DNA of 26,134 nt from a virus, in the UHGV virus genome UHGV-1624389; one strand, 5' to 3'. Below, one piece after another: positions 764 to 18,622 of this stretch. The notes under the pieces are model-generated. The model worked only from the letters and a program-made list of their open reading frames with translations. It was not told where the DNA came from and searched no databases. Within the stretch, counting starts at the first letter, position 1; each line of letters starts with the position of its first letter. The position numbers were made by a program, and so were the translations under genes.

Positions 764-2088
764 TGCACTGGCACCTTCAGAGGGATCACCGGCACAAAGC
801 CGGGATGCGTAATGGCATTACGCCGGATAATGTCCCCGTCACGCGCCGCGTTATCAAACCAGGTCGCCGCCAGCACCAGCGCGGGTAAAACCTCATCCGG
901 TGTGCGCTGAATGATCCGTGCAGACTGTTCAAGGCGCGTGTTGATATCCGCATTCAGATCTGCTTTCACCCGGCGCAGCGCCAGAAACAGCGCATCACTG
1001 GTTGTACGGGACAACTCCTTATCAATTGCCGTATTCAGTGTGTCGCGAATGTCGGTCAGTTCTTCCCACGTCGGCAGGTCAACCGTGTTTTTCACCGCCG
1101 GTGCATTGTTCAGTGCCGGATGCGTGACGGAAGGCCAGCAAGTGCTCTGCGCAGGTGTTGTTGCCTGCCCCACTGCGGCATTCTGCATCACCGCGGAAGT
1201 TGTTAGCGCAGGCAATCGGGTGACGGCATACGCCGCTTCGCTGATTGCGGTCGTACGAAGGGTGCTGGCAACCACGTTACGCTGCTGCGTCGCCGTGGCG
1301 GTGGTTTTACTGTCCGTTTTCCAGACGCCGCGCGGTTGCAGATCGCTGCCGAGGCTGACACCGGAAAGCGTTTTGATCATGGTGACCAGGTCGCTGGCGT
1401 TACCATAAAGGCGTTTCCCAGTACGCCACATTTTCTGCACCTGCTCAACGAAATTTTTGCCTGACGATGGCGGCGGCAGAAGTACCGAGATATCCCCCTG
1501 CAACAGCCTGGCGGCATCCGATACGGCAGAATCCACCACTTTCATCGCATCAGAAACATACCCCAGCATTATGCTGGCATTACCGATAACGTCGTTCTGC
1601 ACGAAATCCGCCACACCATCGATACTGAAACCGCTGAAGCTGTCACTGATGCAGTCATCCAGTGCAGAACAGGATGACATCAGCGTCTGCGCCGTCGCCG
1701 CACCTGATGTGGGGTAAGAGAGTTCTCCCGCTTCGACAAACTTCAGGTCAAAGCGGACAATACGCCCTTCACTCTTCGATGTGCTGACCCGAACCTCTCC
1801 GTCAACACAGACTTTCAGCTCACCGTAAGTCGGATGGACAAGCGTGCCGGGACCGGGTTTATTCAGCGCGTCAATCAGGCGATCGCGCTGGTCAAAGCAG
1901 TCATCTCCCACCACATAAGCCGTGATGGACGGGCGGAAAGTGATTTTCCCCAGGTCTTCGGTATAGGGCTTGTCGCGGTTCGGGTATTCATGTGTTTCCA
2001 CACGACGACCGGTTCCCGCACTTTCTTCTTCAACCTTAAACGGCACACCGCGAAATGACGCGTCCTGAAGTCTGTCTTTCCACGTCAT
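760..2088 (-). CDS. Phage DNA circulation protein (Mu N-like)
   Basis: 442-aa ORF starting MTWKDRLQDASFRGVPF, sitting directly downstream of the tape measure as in Mu-like tail modules. Family assignment from memory. Confidence 0.6.
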   Translation of the reverse strand: MTWKDRLQDASFRGVPFKVEEESAGTGRRVETHEYPNRDKPYTEDLGKITFRPSITAYVVGDDCFDQRDRLIDALNKPGPGTLVHPTYGELKVCVDGEVRVSTSKSEGRIVRFDLKFVEAGELSYPTSGAATAQTLMSSCSALDDCISDSFSGFSIDGVADFVQNDVIGNASIMLGYVSDAMKVVDSAVSDAARLLQGDISVLLPPPSSGKNFVEQVQKMWRTGKRLYGNASDLVTMIKTLSGVSLGSDLQPRGVWKTDSKTTATATQQRNVVASTLRTTAISEAAYAVTRLPALTTSAVMQNAAVGQATTPAQSTCWPSVTHPALNNAPAVKNTVDLPTWEELTDIRDTLNTAIDKELSRTTSDALFLALRRVKADLNADINTRLEQSARIIQRTPDEVLPALVLAATWFDNAARDGDIIRRNAITHPGFVPVIPLKVPVQ

Positions 2089-2100
2089 ATATACTCCGAA

Positions 2101-2131
2101 AATTAAAAAGCCACCTATTAGAAGGTGGCCT
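2101..2131 (-). terminator. Intrinsic terminator after the AT-rich tail-cluster insert
   Basis: Read on the minus strand: stem GCCACCT (rc of 2123-2129), 6-nt loop, AGGTGGC (rc of 2110-2116), then TTTTTAATT. It lies between the insert's stop (2150) and the N-like start (2088). Confidence 0.6.
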
Positions 2132-2149
2132 TGTAATGAATTTTATTAA

Positions 2150-2680
2150 TTAGCGAGTCAGAAACAACGAATCTTTATACTTTTGCTGTTGTTCATTTAA
2201 ATACTTAGCTGTTTCATCGCTGGCAAATGGAAATATTACCGTATTTTTAGGCATGGTAATTTCTTTTTTGTCCAGCGTCAGAGTAAACATAGGAACATAC
2301 TGAGCAGAGTAACGCACCGCAGAAACGAGCTCTAGTTTAGACTCTTCAATAACACTTAAATTATCCAGGCTAACTTTCTCTTCATCTTTTTTCTTTGACG
2401 CATTTAAAGTTTTTATTACTTTATTTAATTTCTCCTGAAAATCCTCCTTAAAGTTTTCAGGATTGCCGTCGACAACAAGAATCTGTTCACCCTGATTATC
2501 TGGAAAAATAATCTTTGCACTTATCAATTTATTTTCTTTATAAACATCACCAAGTTTTATGGCTCCTCCAGATAACTGAATAATATGTTCATCTTTAAAG
2601 GAGATGTTGCCAGAGATTATGAGAGATGAAAAAACAGCCGCTGCTCCAAGAATTACACTTGCTGTGATATAGCCTTTCAT
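2150..2680 (-). CDS. Hypothetical signal-anchored or secreted protein; AT-rich cargo gene inside the tail cluster
   Basis: 176-aa ORF with hydrophobic N-terminus MKGYITASVILGAAAVFSSLIISG and a Lys/Glu-rich remainder. Visibly AT-rich compared with flanking tail genes (not computed). Has its own AT-rich upstream spacer (2681-2771) and downstream terminator. Confidence 0.55.
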   Translation of the reverse strand: MKGYITASVILGAAAVFSSLIISGNISFKDEHIIQLSGGAIKLGDVYKENKLISAKIIFPDNQGEQILVVDGNPENFKEDFQEKLNKVIKTLNASKKKDEEKVSLDNLSVIEESKLELVSAVRYSAQYVPMFTLTLDKKEITMPKNTVIFPFASDETAKYLNEQQQKYKDSLFLTR

Positions 2681-2771
2681 TTTTCGCCTATTAACATTTT
2701 TCTAAATGTGCATTAATTCTATCACTCTATTTATGACTTACAACCAGCAATACCTGTGAGGGGAATCCTGG

Positions 2772-4604
2772 CTACCAAAATCGGGTATAGCCAACATCGT
2801 GATTTATATCAATGCCACTGGAGCGTGTTTCCGTAACCCGCATACCTGGTGGCATATTTATAAATGATACCTTGATCTCACCATCAACTTTTGGCGCAGA
2901 AGCTTTGTTAATCATGAAGGGATTCGGGCCTGTGGCATCGGAGGCGTTGTTTGACTGAGCCAGATCTACCGCCGGATAAGGTGTGTATCCCCGCGCCGGT
3001 ATTCCCGTCCCATAAGCATCATAAGCACCCGCGCCCCACTGCGCAGAGTTAATGGCATCGACCGTGTCACCGGAACTGTCGGTAAACCACTCAATAATTG
3101 GCTTCAGCTTATCCCACATATCCTGAAACCACTTAACAACCGGTCCCCAGTTTTTGATCACCATCCCCAGCGGCGACCAGGCAAAAACCTTCTTCAGAAG
3201 TTCCCAGCCAGCCTCAAAATAAGGACCAATGGTTTCCCAGAGCTTCTTGAAATAAGGTCCGACAACATCCCAGTTAGTGATAATTAATCCCGCAGCCAGA
3301 GCAATCGCCGTCGCAATCATGCCAATCGGCGTCATCGACATAATCCTGCTGACAATACTGATGGCACTGCCCACGCCCATCAATCCCAGTTTCAGAATCG
3401 CAAGACCGGCAGCAAGCCCGACGACGCCGCGAATAACCCGGGGATTTTCATCCGCAAACTTCGTGAATTTCTCCCCCAACTCCCCCAGCCACTGCGTGAT
3501 ATTTTTGGCGTCACCAGAAAATGCGCCGCCAATAGCTGCAAGACCGTTAGTTGCGGTCCCCGTCATTGCCTCCCACAGGTTGGACAGCGTACCAAGCTGA
3601 GCCTGAACACGTTTATTCAGGCTGGCCTGTTTATTCATCTTCTGCTGGATCTGATCGTAGCCATCCTTTCCTTTATCGATTAGTGCATTGACCACCTGAA
3701 GGGTTTCGGCATCATCACCAAATATTGCCTTAAGTACGCCTGTTCGCTTAACGTCGGTCAGTTTTCGCAGCTTTGCCAGTTGCCTGAACATGTTATCAAG
3801 ACCGCCAAAACTCCCTTTGCCGTCAGTAAAATCGAGCTGTACCCCGAGTTTCTGGCGGGCCATGATTTTATTGACGTCCCTGATTTTCTTAACGCTTAAT
3901 CCGGACTGGATAACTTTTCGCAGGGCGTTACCTGCCGACTCCCCGTTCATCCCCATCTGATCCATCATGACGCTGATGGGGGCAAGGCTCTGTGCAGCCT
4001 GAAGACCGTCCTTGTTCACCATCTTCAGAACAGAGCTGGTTTTAGTGAAGAAGGACAACATGTTGGTATCGTCAACGCCCAGATAAAACGCCTTCTGGAT
4101 AGTGTCGAACAGCCCCATCATGTCTTTTGACGCCGTTCCGGTAGCATCCTGCATCTTTGCGGCAAACTCGGCAGCCGCTTCCGGTGTTTTTTTCAGTTGT
4201 ACCGCAAGATAAGCTGTCGCTTTACCCACACCGCCAAGAATGTTTTCTGCCGGGATCCCCTGACGCACCAGCATCTGCATCATGTTCTGGAAATCAGCCG
4301 TTGTACCGGGTAGCTGATTACCCAGGCCAATAGCCAGTTTATTGATGTCCTGAAAGCTCTTTCCAACCTCGCCGTTCGCATCCATCATGGCGACTTTCAG
4401 CCCGGTGGCGGCGTTTTCCTGATCGGCATAAGATTTCAGGGAAAGCGTCAGACCCGCTGCCAGTCCGCCTCCAAGCGCCAGCCCACCCTGTGACGCTTCT
4501 TCCGCCTGGCGTTTAAATCCCCGGATTTTCTTTTGCATTTTCGACAGCGCGGGAGAAAGCCTGTCGACACCGGTGATCAACGCCTTAAGCTCAAATTCCG
4601 CCAT
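2772..4604 (-). CDS. Tail tape measure protein
   Basis: 610-aa ORF, Ala/Gly-rich with a hydrophobic block (LAAGLAILKLGLMGVGSAISIV), located after the tail assembly chaperone and before the N-like gene. Confidence 0.8.
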   Translation of the reverse strand: MAEFELKALITGVDRLSPALSKMQKKIRGFKRQAEEASQGGLALGGGLAAGLTLSLKSYADQENAATGLKVAMMDANGEVGKSFQDINKLAIGLGNQLPGTTADFQNMMQMLVRQGIPAENILGGVGKATAYLAVQLKKTPEAAAEFAAKMQDATGTASKDMMGLFDTIQKAFYLGVDDTNMLSFFTKTSSVLKMVNKDGLQAAQSLAPISVMMDQMGMNGESAGNALRKVIQSGLSVKKIRDVNKIMARQKLGVQLDFTDGKGSFGGLDNMFRQLAKLRKLTDVKRTGVLKAIFGDDAETLQVVNALIDKGKDGYDQIQQKMNKQASLNKRVQAQLGTLSNLWEAMTGTATNGLAAIGGAFSGDAKNITQWLGELGEKFTKFADENPRVIRGVVGLAAGLAILKLGLMGVGSAISIVSRIMSMTPIGMIATAIALAAGLIITNWDVVGPYFKKLWETIGPYFEAGWELLKKVFAWSPLGMVIKNWGPVVKWFQDMWDKLKPIIEWFTDSSGDTVDAINSAQWGAGAYDAYGTGIPARGYTPYPAVDLAQSNNASDATGPNPFMINKASAPKVDGEIKVSFINMPPGMRVTETRSSGIDINHDVGYTRFW

Positions 4605-10270: not shown

Positions 10271-10957
10271 TTAGAAGTTCAGATTTTTCAGTGCATTCAG
10301 TGCAGAGCCCACATCCTCAGCGTCGCGCAGGGACAGTGCGCCATAGCCCCCGGCCATGAATGCTTTGGCCTGGGTACGGGAGAGTCCGACATCACGCAGG
10401 ACTCTTTCGATTTTTTTCTGTTCGGGGATTTCCCCGCGGGCCAGTGCGTTCTTGACGTCGCTGATCCGCGCCTCGTCGTTAGACGGGAACGTCACCAGGC
10501 TGACTTCCCAGAGGTCGATTTCTTTCAGCAGAAAGGCTTCTTTGCTCCGGTCGTATTCCCAGTCTTTCAGGACGTACCCAATAGAAAGGCCGGTTAACGA
10601 ACCGGCCTTCATGTGTGCATGTGCGCGTTTTGCGAGGGGATCATCATCAATAAGCAACCGTCCCCTGACGTAAAGCCCGACATCGTCTTCCTTCATTTCG
10701 GTGTAAACACCGATGGGTTCATCCATGCGGTGCTGCCAGAGCAGCGCAGGTAACGCTTTTCTGTCACTCCACGCCCGCAGGGAAGCAGCAAATGCCCCGG
10801 ACATCACCACATCATCGTGGCTGTCCTTTACACCAAAGACGGAGCCATACCCTTCAAACTCACCGGAGTCACTGACAGATTTCAGACTCAGCGGTACATC
10901 AAGACGTTGTTTCGTCTGCATTGGCGTTATCCTTCTGCTTACCGGCTTTACTGCCAT
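10271..10957 (-). CDS. Prohead maturation protease (HK97 family)
   Basis: 228-aa ORF between portal and capsid; the true start may be the internal Met (MQTKQRL...). Overlaps the portal 3' end. Confidence 0.75.
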   Translation of the reverse strand: MAVKPVSRRITPMQTKQRLDVPLSLKSVSDSGEFEGYGSVFGVKDSHDDVVMSGAFAASLRAWSDRKALPALLWQHRMDEPIGVYTEMKEDDVGLYVRGRLLIDDDPLAKRAHAHMKAGSLTGLSIGYVLKDWEYDRSKEAFLLKEIDLWEVSLVTFPSNDEARISDVKNALARGEIPEQKKIERVLRDVGLSRTQAKAFMAGGYGALSLRDAEDVGSALNALKNLNF

Positions 10958-12140
10958 CGGAGGGTTTCGTGGTCATGTTCATCGGTGTGAGATAGACATC
11001 ACCACCGGGTCGTGGATTCATATCTTCCAGGTCGCGGCAGTCATTGGGAGAGTAAATTCCCCAGTTGATCCCGGTGGCGTAGGCTTCAAAACGGGACTTC
11101 ATATCCCCGCGCAGTAACGCCCCGGCGTTAAATTTGGCGTAATAAACGCCCTGCTTACTTTTTCGTACCAGTCCGGTGTTGATCCGCTGTTCGATGCGGG
11201 TCAGATACGGCACCAGTGAATAGTTGATAAATCCCAGCCCCAGCTCTTCGATATTGTTGAAGGTGGCGCGATCGGTGTTCTGCACCATGTGCAACGGCAC
11301 CCGGAACAGACGACAGATTTCTTCAAGCTGAAACTTGCGGGTTTCCAGGAACTGGCTGTCCTCGGCGTTCAGCGCCATCGACTTCCAGTCCAGCCCCATC
11401 TCAAGGATCATCGGGCGGTGAGCATTGCCAAGCCCGGTGTGACGCTCCTCAAAATCTTTCTTCAGGCGCTCATAAGCCTGATCTGACAGCGTCTGCTCTG
11501 TACGCAACACACCCGACGTCACCGCGCCATTGCTGAACAGTCTGGCCCCGTGCTCTTCGGTCGCTGCCGCCAGCGATATTGCCTCGCGGGCATAGGCGAT
11601 GGGATTCAGCCCCACCAGTCCGTCCAGCGTCAGCGTGCGCACATGCCAGATATCCTCCTGGCTCAGTACATCCGTGGAGCCATCCGGGAATGTGACCTGA
11701 TAGATCGGCTCCCAGCTACTGTTAAGCTTCGGTACCACACAGCCGGGATCGACGGGCAGCAGTTCAGCCACTTCGCCAAATGCTTTCACTTTGTAGGCGT
11801 AAAAGTTTCCCCGCAGGCACAGACAGGTGACCACCAGCTCCCAGAACTCCTGCGGCGTCATATAGCCATTGGGATGCGTGGAGATCAGCTTATGCAGACG
11901 CTCGCCGGTGGCTCTCTGTTTCAGGCTGCCGTTCAGGTGATACAGATTGCAGGGCAACATCCCGACCGACTCTGCCAGCACCCTGACACAGGAAAAAACC
12001 GCCGTCAGTCGCATGGCCCGCTGGCTGCTGATCTGCTTTCCGGTATAGGTGTCGTAGGACAACCCGATGGCATCCGCCAGCTCTGCTGGCGTGGTCACCG
12101 GTGCGTCACTTTTTCGTTGAAATAATCCCGAAAAGAACAC
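10899..12140 (-). CDS. Portal protein (HK97 family)
   Basis: 413 aa, immediately downstream of the large terminase, with an acidic Lys/Asp-rich C-terminus. Confidence 0.8.
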   Translation of the reverse strand: MFFSGLFQRKSDAPVTTPAELADAIGLSYDTYTGKQISSQRAMRLTAVFSCVRVLAESVGMLPCNLYHLNGSLKQRATGERLHKLISTHPNGYMTPQEFWELVVTCLCLRGNFYAYKVKAFGEVAELLPVDPGCVVPKLNSSWEPIYQVTFPDGSTDVLSQEDIWHVRTLTLDGLVGLNPIAYAREAISLAAATEEHGARLFSNGAVTSGVLRTEQTLSDQAYERLKKDFEERHTGLGNAHRPMILEMGLDWKSMALNAEDSQFLETRKFQLEEICRLFRVPLHMVQNTDRATFNNIEELGLGFINYSLVPYLTRIEQRINTGLVRKSKQGVYYAKFNAGALLRGDMKSRFEAYATGINWGIYSPNDCRDLEDMNPRPGGDVYLTPMNMTTKPSDGSKAGKQKDNANADETTS

Positions 12141-12333: not shown

Positions 12334-14067
12334 TTAAAGCGAGCGGATCCCATAGGACTCAATGTGGTCAGACAGCGTGTCTTCTTTCTCGTACAGCATG
12401 GCTCTGCCAACCGCCATAATCAGCGCAACTGCACCGTCAATTTTGTTTTCCGCCTGCTCTTTGACGGGTTTCACCACATCATCGTTACCCGGAATGGTTT
12501 TGCCGACCACATTGCCGATACACCAGGTCATGATGGGATTGCCATCATGATGAAAGCGCCCCGATTCAATTGCCGCTTCCAGCTCTTTCATCGGGTCGGA
12601 CATGTTGGTGTAGTTCTGAATGATAGTGACGGGATTCAGGTCTTCATCAGCAAGGTCATGTGACAACCCGGTCGCCCCGAAGGGGTCGATGGGTGACTCA
12701 CTGACCGGGCTGATTTTGTTCGCCGCTTTGGCCTCCTCGAGGATGTAGCGATAATCCACCTCCGCACCATCGGTAACGGTCAGAACGCCCATTTCCACCC
12801 ATTTCTGAAAGCGTTCGGCTGTCCGGCGATCTTCATTTTTCTCGACGCTGTACACCGTGTCATACGGTACCCAGAAGCGCGGAGCCACACTGTAGTAATG
12901 CGTTTTACCGTCAATCTCGCGGGTATAAAGTCGCGCCATGCTGTTCATATCCAGCTTACGCGCCAGGTCAAAGGCCAGAATGCACGGTTGCCCCTCGAAC
13001 TGCTCAAGGGTCAGTGATTTATCCTCGCAGCTCTGCCAGCTCACCAGGTTGAAATACGCCGAACGCGCCGACACCCAGATATTGAGGTGTTTTGTTTTAA
13101 AGACGTTTGCCAGACGGGCGTTATTTTTCGCACGCTGCTGCTGACTTAACAAAAATTCGCGATAAACCGACACGCCAATATTCGGGTTAGCTTTTTCCAG
13201 CACCTGCGGGTCGGTCCAGTCATCGCCTTCGTCAACGGTATAGATGATCCCGAACAGTTCATCGTTGGGTACCGAACCGTTGAGCATCTCGATAACTTCC
13301 CGCCGCTTGTCGTAGCACGGCCCCTCAATGTTGTACCCGGCGGTGGTGATGGCCCACATCAGTGGCTGACGTCGCGCGCCCATCCCGGTAAGCATCGTGG
13401 TATAAAGCGCATCGGTGGCGTGCTCGTGATATTCATCCACCACGGCACAGTGGGGTGATGAACCATCACCGGGGTTACCGATCAGCGGTTCAAACCGCGC
13501 GCCATCCTCCGGACGGTTCATGTTTGAGGCGTTAACCTCAATCCCGAACGCTTCCGTCAGCATGGGTGTGCGTTTACACATCAGTCGCGCCGGGCGAAAG
13601 ACTTCCCACGCCTGTTTCTCTGTCGTGGCACCGGAATACACTTCCGCGCCAAACTCGTTATCACAGGCAAAACAATACAGGGCAACACCGGCAGAGATTG
13701 CCGATTTGCCGTTCTTACGGGGGATTTCGGTATACACCTCCCTGAAGCGGCGCAGCCGGGAGCCTTTATTGACCCAGCCAAACGCACAGCAGATCACAAA
13801 GAGCTGCCACGGTTCCAGCGTGATGGGCATCCTCTTGAATGCCCACTCCCCCTTGGTGTGTGGCAACAGCTGAATAAATTTCGCGGCCCGTTCAGCCAGG
13901 TCCTTGTCGAAGCGGTAACGAAACGACTTACTTTTTTCCGCCATCAGGTCATCAAGATGGCGCTGGCAGGCCTGAATCACAAACTGGCAGGCCACAATCT
14001 TTCCGCGCACGACATCACGGGCATACTGATTGGCAGCATTTACGTTGGGGTAAGATTTCCGGCTCAT
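12334..14067 (-). CDS. Terminase large subunit
   Basis: 577 aa with a Walker A-like stretch ([12 protein letters not shown]) and acidic nuclease-like C-terminal half. ATGA overlap with the small terminase gene. Confidence 0.9.
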
Positions 14068-14567
14068 GATTCGATGATTTTCAGAAACGGGTTAGTGGCT
14101 TTCTTCTGCCCCGCCAGGCCAATCAGACGCTGGCGGCTGCTGGGGTCGAGTCCGAGCATTGCCCCCGTGCTGCTCATCTCGGACTCCTGTTCTTTCTTGG
14201 CGGTCAGCTCCGGATTTTTGACCATGCCACCCATTGCACCGGTGATGGTGTTGCCCTGTCTGGCAATATTTTTCACGGCACGCCGCCAGAACTCGTAGGC
14301 CACGCACCACCGCTCAAGCACCGCGAGGTCAGTCACGCACAGCAGGCCCTGACCGCAGAGTTCTTTGGTTGTCAGTTGCCACATGATCGTGGCGAGAGGG
14401 AGATCTTCTTCAGCGAACCACTCCGGTGGCTCAACACCTTTGATGGGCGTAAAAACAGGTTCATCTTTATTCAGGGCTCGCTTGCCGGGGTTTCCGGCCA
14501 GCGCCTTGCGCGCCGTTGGCTTGGGGCGACGCCCGGAACGCCCCGCCGTTCCAGCCATATGCGGCAC
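14064..14567 (-). CDS. Terminase small subunit (P27-like)
   Basis: 167 aa with basic N-terminus [30 protein letters not shown], directly upstream of the large terminase. Confidence 0.75.
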
Positions 14568-14608
14568 TCCTGGTTAAATTTCATTTTTCGCGGGTATAAA
14601 AAAACGAT

Positions 14609-14657
14609 GGGGCGGGCAGTCCGGAAGACGTCAGGTCACAGAGATTTGACCCGCCCC
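14609..14657. repeat. GC-rich inverted repeat between the HNH and terS genes; candidate cos/packaging-site region
   Basis: GGGGCGGG (14609-14616) and CCCGCCCC (14650-14657) flank a nested GTCA...TGAC symmetry. Location matches cos sites of HNH-dependent HK97-like packaging modules. Confidence 0.35.
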
Positions 14658-14683
14658 TCCCCTCAGACAGTTGAGAATTATTA

Positions 14684-15034
14684 TCACTTTAGCCGTTCAC
14701 GGGCCGTCTTCGCCTTATGACACGGCCAGCACAGACTCTGCAGATTATTGTCGGCCTCAGTGCCGCCATGTGCTTTAGGGATGATGTGGTCAACGGTTTT
14801 CGCCTCACGCACCACACCGGCACGCAGACATAACTGACACAGGCCCTTGTCACGCTTCAGTACACGTTCACGGATAGCATCCCATTTCGAACCGTAGCCG
14901 CGCTGATGACGGGATTGTCCTGGCTTGTATTGCTTCCAGCCTTCGCTTTTGTGGCTTTCGCAGTAGCCTGACGGGTCTGTGGTGGTATGGCGGCAGCCAC
15001 GAACACGGCAGGCTTTTGGGATTCGTGGGGGCAT
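14684..15034 (-). CDS. HNH endonuclease (terminase-associated)
   Basis: 116 aa with Cys pairs and a DHIIPKAHGG...N...CWPCH motif, placed just upstream of terS. Confidence 0.85.
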   Translation of the reverse strand: MPPRIPKACRVRGCRHTTTDPSGYCESHKSEGWKQYKPGQSRHQRGYGSKWDAIRERVLKRDKGLCQLCLRAGVVREAKTVDHIIPKAHGGTEADNNLQSLCWPCHKAKTARERLK

Positions 15035-16618: not shown

Positions 16619-16647
16619 TTGCGTACGCGTTAGCGCTTTTGTATATT
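16619..16647 (+). promoter_or_regulatory. Candidate sigma-70 promoter for the plus-strand two-gene insert
   Basis: TTGCGT (16619-16624), 17-bp spacer, TATATT (16642-16647), about 35 bp upstream of the ATG at 16681. Confidence 0.35.
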
Positions 16648-16680
16648 CAGCTTAATCCTATGTATTTATGGAAAAATAAG

Positions 16681-17712
16681 ATGAGCAAGCGTGAAATCAA
16701 AACTAAAAAAATAATCTATAAAGAAGTCACAATGTCAGGTGTGTCAAAGACGCTCCAGTCGATGCTAATGGAGCTGCTCAAAAAACACACTAAAGCAGAT
16801 TCTCGCAAGGAAATGGTCAACCCAGGAGAGGAAGACTTATTCCGATTAATTAATAAACATGAAGAGTTCCAGGGAATGCTGTTTTGCCAGCTTGTTGCCT
16901 TCGAACCAGGCCATTCTCAACGCTATATACAGCTTAAAAATGATGCTGAATCTTATGAAATAAGATCCGTAACATCAGATGAACTTTCTAAAATGACTGT
17001 TGAAGAAGCTGAAGAAGCACGCACAGAGAGGGAACAGGTTGTGCGTGAGTTTATAGATTCAATTCTTTATTTCGGTGTATTTGGTAACAGCATCGTAGTA
17101 ATGCAATCCAGATCTCTTACAACAAGAGAACTTGAAACACATCTGAAATGGTTACTTGGCTCTTTAAGCAATTACTTAGGCGCAGAAAACATCTTAAAAG
17201 TTTCCGATAAGCCCAAAGAAGAGATCATTGAGGAAGTTCTAAAACGACCTGTAAAATCAGTTTCTATAGGTGCCCCTGTAACTGCCGTTAACGAATTTAG
17301 TCAAGGAAGCAAAAGCCCAGGCTGGGTTCCCGCAGGAACTGCCTCTGAACTCCTTAAAGCTATGTTAGCAGAGAAATGGGAAAGCTTCTTACGTAGTAGC
17401 AAGCTTGAAGATTGTCTTGATGACGCTAATCTTGAAGTAACGCTGAAAATCACATACAAGAGGAAAACTTCTGATTCAGGAGAAAGGATGTTAAGAAATC
17501 TTGTTGACGCTACCAGACACTACCCGGATGATGACGTCGTTGTTGAAATGGTTGGTGGGACGCGTTTAACTGGTAAAGAGATTCGTTTATGGAATACTGT
17601 TAAACTCACAACTTACAATAGCTTAATTGATGAACATGAACTATATGGCCAAATGCATGATTGGATGGTCGCTCTGATCAACAATGGAGAAATAGAAGAG
17701 ACCGATGAATAG
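16681..17712 (+). CDS. Insert gene A: soluble protein of unknown function, candidate sensor component
   Basis: Long ORF on the strand opposite to all flanking phage genes. The start is taken at MSKREIKTKK (16681) because the track's first Met at 16639 lies inside the putative promoter. About 343 aa, hydrophilic, no Walker A or nucleotidyltransferase GS...DxD motif seen. Visibly AT-rich. Confidence 0.7.
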   Translation: MSKREIKTKKIIYKEVTMSGVSKTLQSMLMELLKKHTKADSRKEMVNPGEEDLFRLINKHEEFQGMLFCQLVAFEPGHSQRYIQLKNDAESYEIRSVTSDELSKMTVEEAEEARTEREQVVREFIDSILYFGVFGNSIVVMQSRSLTTRELETHLKWLLGSLSNYLGAENILKVSDKPKEEIIEEVLKRPVKSVSIGAPVTAVNEFSQGSKSPGWVPAGTASELLKAMLAEKWESFLRSSKLEDCLDDANLEVTLKITYKRKTSDSGERMLRNLVDATRHYPDDDVVVEMVGGTRLTGKEIRLWNTVKLTTYNSLIDEHELYGQMHDWMVALINNGEIEETDE

Positions 17713-18244
17713 AGAGGCTGCTAAGTGCATATCCTACCAACAACCAAGTAGAGCATTCCACTTGGTTGTTGTAGTATTGCTTATGTTTACAGCCTGGTTT
17801 ATCGCCAATAAGTACATCATTTTAACATCCATTCCTTGGGGCGTATTAACTATCCTCATCTTACCAATTGCAAGTAGCGCAACCCTGTTTCATAAGTTAT
17901 CTGAAACCCAAAAAAACGTTGCTGAGGATTTATCTCGCAATGAACAAAGAAGGTTAACAAGGCTTATTAAAGAAAAAAGCCGGGCAACATTATTCATGCT
18001 TACGCTACAAATTTCGATAATAATTTTTGTGGCATTGATTAGCCTTGGCAATGAGTCCTCTTTTGTTCAACAGCACATTCATACTATAAGTAAATTCGTT
18101 GTTTGTGCTTTGGTTTTTTCACTATACTCATTAATCCCTGTTTTACTAGGAGTAAAGGAAGTTATTGATTTTGAAGGGTTAATAAAAACACGAAAAACAT
18201 TAAATAAGCGTAAAAAATCTGCATTATCCAAGCTTGGGAAGTAA
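17705..18244 (+). CDS. Insert gene B: four-TM small membrane protein, candidate effector
   Basis: 179 aa with four hydrophobic helices (HLVVVVLLMFTAWFIA, IPWGVLTILILPIASSATLF, LFMLTLQISIIIFVALISLG, FVVCALVFSLYSLIPVLLGV), a charged loop and a basic C-tail. Start overlaps gene A's stop (ATGAATAG), so the two are translationally coupled. Confidence 0.7.
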   Translation: MNREAAKCISYQQPSRAFHLVVVVLLMFTAWFIANKYIILTSIPWGVLTILILPIASSATLFHKLSETQKNVAEDLSRNEQRRLTRLIKEKSRATLFMLTLQISIIIFVALISLGNESSFVQQHIHTISKFVVCALVFSLYSLIPVLLGVKEVIDFEGLIKTRKTLNKRKKSALSKLGK

Positions 18245-18265: not shown

Positions 18266-18622
18266 TTAAACCATTCTCAGAACACCATCAATAAAACCTA
18301 AAGCAGTTTGCAATTCTTTTCTGATCGTACCATCTGAGCATTTCTGCTTCTTTGCAATTGTACGGAGCGAAACCCCAATAACAAAATGTGCGATTATCAG
18401 CTCATATTCTTCAGGCCTATATTTACGCAACCGAGCCACACAACTGTCTATCATAATGCCTTCGTCATCATCACACTGAATCCGGGACTTTTTGCCATGA
18501 GGTAAAAGCCCCTTGAAGCCAGCGGCTACCGGTTGCCAGTCCACTCCGCTATTGTCTGAAGCAGCCCAAGCTCCCCAACGATCCATCACTTCATACATAT
18601 CACGCATCAACTTTCTCCACAA
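18266..18622 (-). CDS. Q: Late-gene antiterminator Q (phage antitermination Q family)
   Basis: 118 aa: ...RWGAWAA...AAGFKGL...QCDDD...ARL.K...CSDG.I...LQ.A.G.I.G.L, a pattern matching remembered Q proteins of lambdoid/Stx-type phages. Sits upstream of the lysis cassette. Confidence 0.75.
   Translation of the reverse strand: MWRKLMRDMYEVMDRWGAWAASDNSGVDWQPVAAGFKGLLPHGKKSRIQCDDDEGIMIDSCVARLRKYRPEEYELIIAHFVIGVSLRTIAKKQKCSDGTIRKELQTALGFIDGVLRMV

Follow-up and report, generated by a model that had tools for sequence, protein, structure and literature searches.

The spacer between the HNH endonuclease gene and the small terminase gene (terS) of the virus genome UHGV-1624389 raises the question of whether it is a cos site and, if so, by which sequence features such a site can be recognised. 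The first-pass annotation of the window (the whole stretch of 26,134 nucleotides that was analysed) proposed a candidate cos region here on the basis of a GC-rich nested inverted repeat. The open reading frame (ORF) list and Pfam matches show that positions 14568-14683 are a non-coding spacer running from the HNH ORF to the terS ORF, both of which lie on the minus strand. The gene order on this strand is holin, lysozyme, Rz, HNH, spacer, terS (P27 family), large terminase gene terL (HK97 type) and portal, with Rz/Rz1, lysozyme, holin (PF05106) and antiterminator Q (PF06530) upstream of HNH. This gene set is a lambdoid late operon read from the minus strand. The features of the region are listed in Table 1, in which relative positions are counted from the top-strand cut (+1 is 14608).

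Table 1. Genes and sequence blocks in and around the HNH-terS spacer.
Feature	Position	Strand	Evidence or remarks
Portal gene	10899-12140	-	ORF and Pfam
Large terminase gene terL, 577 aa, HK97 gp2 type	12334..14067	-	Pfam PF03354 and PF20441
Small terminase gene terS, P27 family	14064..14558	-	Pfam Terminase_4 PF05119, E = 2.4e-21
ACCCGCGAAAAATGAAATTTAA, +14 to +35, candidate TerS recognition site (cosB equivalent)	14574..14595	-	G/C step, then long A/T tract
Left genome end start ATCGTTTTTTTATAC, +1 to +15, T-run +7 to +11	14594..14608	-	1.16 bits per column
10-nt cohesive end 5'-TGCCCGCCCC-3', cosN equivalent	14609..14618	-	Exact match to mapped SfI cos (PMC3636060)
GGAC-type flank TTCCGGAC, -18 to -11	14619..14626	-	A49 nearly invariant, C50 invariant; 0.98 bits per column
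Variable spacer, about -31 to -19	14627..14639	-	Lowest conservation, about 0.5 bits per column
TCAAATCTCT block, -41 to -32, adjoining the G-rich block	14640..14649	-	A23 and A24 invariant; mean 1.34 bits
G-rich block GGGGAGGGGCGGG, -54 to -42	14650..14662	-	G14 and G15 invariant; mean 1.28 bits (47 cos regions)
HNH endonuclease gene, 116 aa, HK97 gp74 homologue	14684..15034	-	Pfam PF01844, E = 6.9e-16; BLASTP against gp74, E = 3e-10

The HNH, terS, terL and portal ORFs are all intact, with full-length Pfam matches. TerL is the ATPase motor and cos nuclease, and the HNH protein is the accessory nuclease of the packaging module. TerS scores 76.4 bits against PF05119 (cut-off 24.7) and thus belongs to the P27 family, as do phiP27 L35 and phi644-2 gp1, which match the same Pfam entry. 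The mechanical ORF call placed the terS start at a GTG codon (14567), which falls within a Shine-Dalgarno sequence, AGGAG (14571-14567). The ATG at 14558 is the likelier start, because this AGGAG precedes it and because the annotations of SfV (68-562) and SfI (51-545) agree with it; initiation there gives a TerS of 164 aa, as annotated in both phages, and the true spacer would therefore be 14559-14683.

The cohesive end itself can be located through phage SfI. The ends of SfI virion DNA were sequenced by run-off and compared with the prophage, which revealed a 10-nt gap, 5'-TGCCCGCCCC-3', from which the authors concluded that packaging is of the cos type (PMC3636060). The window has one copy of this 10-mer, on the minus strand at 14618-14609; its plus-strand reading, GGGGCGGGCA, forms the proximal arm of the inverted repeat. 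The same cos has been reported for SfIV (PMC3851460). The SfI sequence record terminates in the 10-mer, the first base of the records of Edwardsiella phage EPP-1 and Burkholderia phage phi644-2 aligns with window position 14608, and the linear records of SfI, EPP-1, phi644-2 and HK97 all break at one common aligned base. The annotated 'cos-site' of phiP27 (CGCCCGCCCC) occupies the same 10 aligned columns. For phi644-2, 10-base 3' extensions have been published, the right one being 5'-CGCCCGCTTC-3' (PMC2920897), and this extension aligns column for column with the 10-mer of the window. The proposal of a cos between HNH and terS is supported by the single copy of the mapped SfI end, the co-aligned record ends and the co-aligned phiP27 cos feature, and the comparison with HK97-like cos sites that had been suggested as a check gives the same answer, with the ends of HK97, phi644-2 and phiP27 falling on the homologous position. 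A full-text literature search for the 10-mers returned only unrelated eukaryotic promoter and primer matches.

The position of the cohesive end and its sequence are thereby established through near-identical phages. The top-strand nick (gene-sense, minus strand) is inferred to lie at 14609/14608 and that of the other strand at 14619/14618; the second nick position is marked by HK97-group records that stop 10 nt short of the HK97 record end. The right genome end is predicted to carry a 10-nt 3' overhang. The SfI paper does not state the polarity, and we assign it as 3' because the run-off reads leave a 10-nt gap, whereas reads from 5' overhangs would overlap, and because phi644-2 and HK97 have 3' ends.

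The region from HNH to terS is 96–99% identical by Megablast to that of the serotype-converting Shigella flexneri phages SfV, SfI, SfII and SfIV and of several E. coli phages. Window positions 14392-14676 are 100% identical to SfV, all cos blocks included, and SfI differs from the window across 14470-14664 only at 14608 (+1), with A against G; the SfI 10-nt end is identical to that of the window, as is the order HNH-cos-terS-terL. The cos itself does not differ among SfV, SfI, SfII, SfIV and the window, the one difference in setting being that the window holds a resident prophage copy in which cos is internal. The deposited SfV record (U82619.2) was opened 8 nt upstream of the SfI-mapped 10-mer (window 14625/14626), which is not a physical end, while the SfII record begins right after the HNH stop codon and the ST64B record just before terS. 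Because these openings differ, record boundaries in this phage group are unreliable guides to physical ends.

It could be asked whether the sequence is a relic in this particular genome, the prophage being cryptic or packaging its DNA by a headful (pac) mechanism that leaves the site unused as a cos. Nothing in the window proves inducibility, and only 26 kb are visible. We nevertheless regard this as improbable: the HNH, terS, terL and portal genes are intact over the full length of their Pfam matches, all of the cos blocks are identical to those of the viable phage SfV, SfI uses cos rather than headful packaging (PMC3636060), and about 1070 E. coli records carry the spacer with at least 95% identity.

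A broader sample of the site was obtained with the 20-mer CCGCGAAAAATGAAATTTAA, an exact match to 14593-14574 (+16 to +35). Scanning one genome per species, this 20-mer was found in 47 species-representative genome stretches, in 44 of which the full cos architecture is present. These 44 loci span Citrobacter, Serratia, Photorhabdus, Xenorhabdus, Edwardsiella, Lonsdalea, Vibrio, Comamonas, Acidovorax, Pandoraea, Burkholderia, Paraburkholderia and Pseudohongiella, among others. The remaining three matches (L100, L104 and L106; Flavobacterium and an uncultured bacterium) have no cos-like context, were attributed to chance and were left out of the alignment. The resulting alignment of 47 sequences includes phiP27, EPP-1, phi644-2 and HK97, and the blocks in Table 1 were delimited from its per-column information. 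Two contigs from one draft assembly of Mangrovibacter plantisponsor (L103 and L133) both stop 12 nt past the 20-mer, about +47 from the cut; these stops probably reflect an assembly break at a terS region that is repeated in two prophages, not a physical cos end.

Across this alignment, the cohesive-end columns (-10 to -1) follow the consensus YGCCCGCYYC with a mean of 1.17 bits, and in the adjoining left end columns T67-T70 and A72 are nearly invariant. The +16 to +35 segment has a mean of 1.89 bits per column, a value that is inflated, its conservation being partly by construction because the loci were retrieved with CCGCGAAAAATGAAATTTAA itself. The members of the P27 family share much with the window: phiP27, Burkholderia phage phiE125, phi644-2 and EPP-1 all have a P27-family TerS (PF05119) and an upstream HNH gene, carry a 10-nt YGCCCGCYYC end at the same aligned columns, and possess the G-rich block, GGAC flank, T-run and +16 to +35 motif. 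Their 10-mers differ from that of the window at one to three positions (CGCCCGCCCC, TGCCCGCCTC and CGCCCGCTTC), and their spacers at -31 to -19 are unrelated to that of the window. In EPP-1 and phi644-2 the G-rich block and the cohesive end have lost their complementarity.

This last difference bears on the inverted repeat from which the site was first proposed. The repeat exists as described: a perfect 8-nt pair on the plus strand, GGGGCGGG at 14609-14616 and CCCGCCCC at 14650-14657, separated by a 33-nt spacer, with the distal arm lying inside the G-rich block. The inner symmetry consists of 4-mers only, GTCA (14630-14633 and 14635-14638) against TGAC (14647-14650), and the C that ends this TGAC is also the first base of the outer arm. 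Of 2000 dinucleotide-shuffled versions of the spacer, 7.2% contain a perfect pair of arms that are 8 nt or longer and lie 3–60 nt apart (P about 0.07), and the whole window contains 58 perfect pairs of that kind, or about 0.26 per 116 bp. The nested GC-rich repeat is thus present in the sequence but does not exceed chance.

If the arms acted at the RNA level, they could form an intrinsic terminator or another hairpin between HNH and terS, with the sense strand reading GGGGCGGG...CCCGCCCC and then AUCGUUUUUUU. A GC-rich stem of 8-10 bp is possible on the minus strand, followed 4 nt later by a run of seven U residues, and the minimum free energy is -26.9 kcal/mol. The loop would have to be 33 nt long, however, with the U run not adjacent to the stem, and the sense strand folds no better than shuffled sequences (z = -0.60 as RNA and -0.96 as DNA), 58 of 200 shuffles folding equally well. 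A terminator scan made no call at the spacer, and no Rfam match was found at E ≤ 1. In the alignment of 47 homologous sites, the outer 8 and inner 3 pairs show standard pairing in 64.0% of cells, below the 67.0% of column shuffles, with a covariation score of 0.144 against 0.171 for the shuffles, and sliding the partner gives similar numbers. Furthermore, the T-run and C-rich 10-mer are still conserved where a stem is impossible (HK97, phi644-2 and Xenorhabdus). A terminator or RNA hairpin is therefore extremely improbable.

Alternatively, the arms could bind a dimeric protein as a site of dyad symmetry, or extrude as a cruciform, and be needed in that form for cos recognition. Complementarity is indeed 8/8 in the SfV, SfI, phiP27, Mangrovibacter and Shigella versions. 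It is lost, with the architecture kept, in EPP-1, phi644-2, HK97, Xenorhabdus, Burkholderia and Citrobacter, several of these being viable phages; in the EPP-1, phi644-2, HK97, Xenorhabdus and Burkholderia versions the 10-mer has changed and the G-rich block shows no compensating change. In HK97 itself, the G-run does not complement the end, CGCCGCCAAA. Variation within the lineage was surveyed by an IMG/VR search with the TerS protein, which retrieved 99%-identical loci only; among these 80 loci, those with the distal-arm variant GGGGGAGG keep the 10-mer unchanged. The alignment gives neither excess pairing nor covariation, and an all-against-all scan of its columns for complementarity returned five isolated pairs and no helix. 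The inner GTCA/TGAC is missing in phiP27, and across the alignment only 40% of its cells are paired. A dyad or cruciform requirement is accordingly very unlikely.

Local dyads of other kinds do occur in some lineages. The Xenorhabdus prophages (L099, L118, L128 and L125) have the cohesive end YGCCACCTTG and, across the region of the nicks, a dyad of 7-9 bp such as ACCCAAGG-GACCGCCA-CCTTGGGT in L128. As a result, local dyads at -22 to +8 are in slight excess (reached by 2 of 500 shuffles), a feature that is lineage-specific and absent from the window. Local hairpins in the variable spacer of Lonsdalea and Burkholderia (GGGGC-GA-GCCCC and GGAGG-TGTCG-CCTCC) were considered and set aside: with the observed value attained in 64 of 500 shuffles, there is no enrichment.

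On this comparative evidence, the inverted repeat of the window is best read as the coincidence of a C-rich cohesive end with a G-rich block, and not as a hairpin, terminator or dyad site. The complementarity of the arms in the SfV lineage is a by-product, since the G-rich block faces the C-rich end. Each arm is conserved as a separate motif, and the repeat is not a functional signature. As an indicator of cos, the repeat of the first-pass annotation therefore fares unevenly: the spacer that it pointed to is the cos, but the repeat itself loses its complementarity in relatives and shows no covariation.

The distal arm belongs instead to a candidate second conserved sub-site of cos, composed of the G-rich block and TCAAATCT (14640-14662) and situated on the last-packaged end. 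In both the window and HK97, a G-run followed by TCAAATCT lies exactly 41 nt from the right end. Most likely, TerL or HNH recognises the block, or it serves in termination as cosQ does in lambda. Two other readings of the G-rich block were discarded, both by eye only: a G-quadruplex (there are three G-runs, not four) and, for the block together with TCAAATCT, an IHF site (the match to the consensus is poor). Between this block and the GGAC flank lies the variable spacer, with a GACGTC palindrome and the inner GTCA/TGAC, and most of the variation among the 80 near-identical IMG/VR loci falls there.

HK97 provides a further comparison with experimentally defined ends. Its overhangs are 3' and 10 nt long, and cleavage of its cos by terminase is stimulated by the HNH protein gp74 (PMC9410871, PMC11331095). 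Its TerL (gp2) and HNH proteins are homologous to those of the window (E = 1e-29 and E = 3e-10, respectively), TerL being 26% identical over about 520 aa with the same Pfam domains, and its cos likewise has a GAC flank and a CGCC-type 10-mer. The two sequences were placed by their mapped ends, which leaves the alignment no freedom to shift. In the 60 nt upstream of the cut, 31 of 60 positions are identical between the window and HK97, a value reached by 2 of 200,000 shuffles and peaking at offset 0; in the 40 nt downstream, 13 of 40 are identical, which is the chance level. TerS shows no detectable similarity to HK97 gp1 (BLASTP E = 6.2; gp1 is without a Pfam match), and the HNH stop codon is 319 nt from the end in HK97 as opposed to 74 nt from the top-strand cut in the window. 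A blastn search with the HK97 cos returned close HK97 relatives only. Membership in the HK97 group sensu stricto was rejected on the grounds of the TerS comparison and the chance-level downstream identity.

The pattern of upstream identity and downstream divergence parallels TerL and HNH homology and TerS divergence, suggesting that TerL and HNH may read the upstream block and nick region and TerS the downstream block. We raise as a possibility, more doubtful than not, that the upstream block is a distinct cosQ-like or nuclease-positioning sub-site common to HK97- and P27-type phages from Enterobacterales to Burkholderiales, tracking TerL and HNH instead of TerS; the uncoupling of the block from TerS is seen in one TerS-divergent lineage only, the HK97 group. 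In the HK97 papers examined, which map the TerS site downstream of the cut and no other, no description of the block was found, and a fixed-distance upstream block shared with HK97 is the only mildly new point here.

Downstream of the cut, the +14 to +35 segment reads ACCCGCG and then AAAAATGAAATTTAA. The TerS site of HK97 lies at +15 to +29, with an essential C:G pair at +21 adjoining a 9-bp A-tract (PMC11331095); HK97 and the window thus share a G/C step and an A/T tract at about +15 to +30, where HK97 TerS binds. By analogy, the P27-family TerS may bind at +14 to +35, which corresponds to the HK97 site in position and composition and differs from it in sequence.

The layout of the region also recalls the cosQ-cosN-cosB arrangement of lambda, with an upstream element on the last-packaged end, a nicking site, and a small-terminase site before the gene for that protein, and in both cases late transcription from the lysis genes crosses cos. 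The lambda system has 12-nt 5' overhangs and a gpNu1/gpA terminase, uses IHF, and lacks an HNH protein. The cos of the window showed no sequence similarity to that of lambda, and a lambda-type cos was rejected, given that TerL belongs to PF03354/PF20441 and not to the gpA family, that TerS belongs to PF05119 and that homologous phages have 10-nt 3' ends. The cosQ element is cited in PMC11331095.

Taken together, the site is very probably the cos of an SfV/SfI-like lambdoid prophage with an HK97-type TerL, an HNH accessory nuclease and a P27-family TerS, a reading drawn from sequence comparison. Gene context, TerL and HNH homology, and the mapped-end sequence at the homologous position all agree with the class of HNH-assisted HK97/P27-type cos sites. 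By homology, TerS would recognise +14 to +35 (14574-14595) on concatemeric DNA, and TerL, helped by HNH, would nick twice, 10 nt apart, on the minus strand at 14609/14608 and on the other strand at 14619/14618. Two such nicks would yield virion DNA with 10-nt 3' overhangs. Packaging would start on the terS side and stop at the next cos, leaving the -54 to -32 block on the last-packaged end, where, by analogy only, it would take the place that cosQ has relative to cosN in lambda.

Elsewhere in the window, two overlapping plus-strand ORFs, the first of 357 aa and the second of 179 aa and apparently spanning the membrane, occupy an island of 40–44% GC at 16639-18244. They run opposite to the late operon, between antiterminator Q (18266-18622, minus strand) and the holin gene, and this gap is the slot of the toxin genes in Stx phages. 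Neither a Pfam match above the cut-off nor a PADLOC match was obtained for these ORFs. A 99.7%-identical segment, annotated as hypothetical, adjoins Q in the Stx2a-converting phages Stx2a_1447 and Stx2a_WGPS2. The ORF pair is a moron. A second stretch of low GC content (39%, against about 55% in the flanks) is found at 2001-3000, in the structural/tail region.

The element itself has been described before, as the SfV/SfI cos, which belongs to the phiP27/phiE125/HK97 class. Of 5426 complete E. coli genomes, 1114 contain the 122-bp spacer, and for annotation the result supplies the predicted physical genome ends (14609/14608 and 14619/14618) of a prophage type carried by about one fifth of complete E. 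coli genomes. A signature based on the repeat is the wrong key for recognising such cos sites; a better one is the combination of a G-run with TCAAATCT, GGAC with YGCCCGCYYC, and a T-run with CCGCGAAAAATGAAATTTAA. With respect to mechanism, the HK97 in vitro packaging system gains an upstream element that can be tested and a candidate site for a P27-family TerS.
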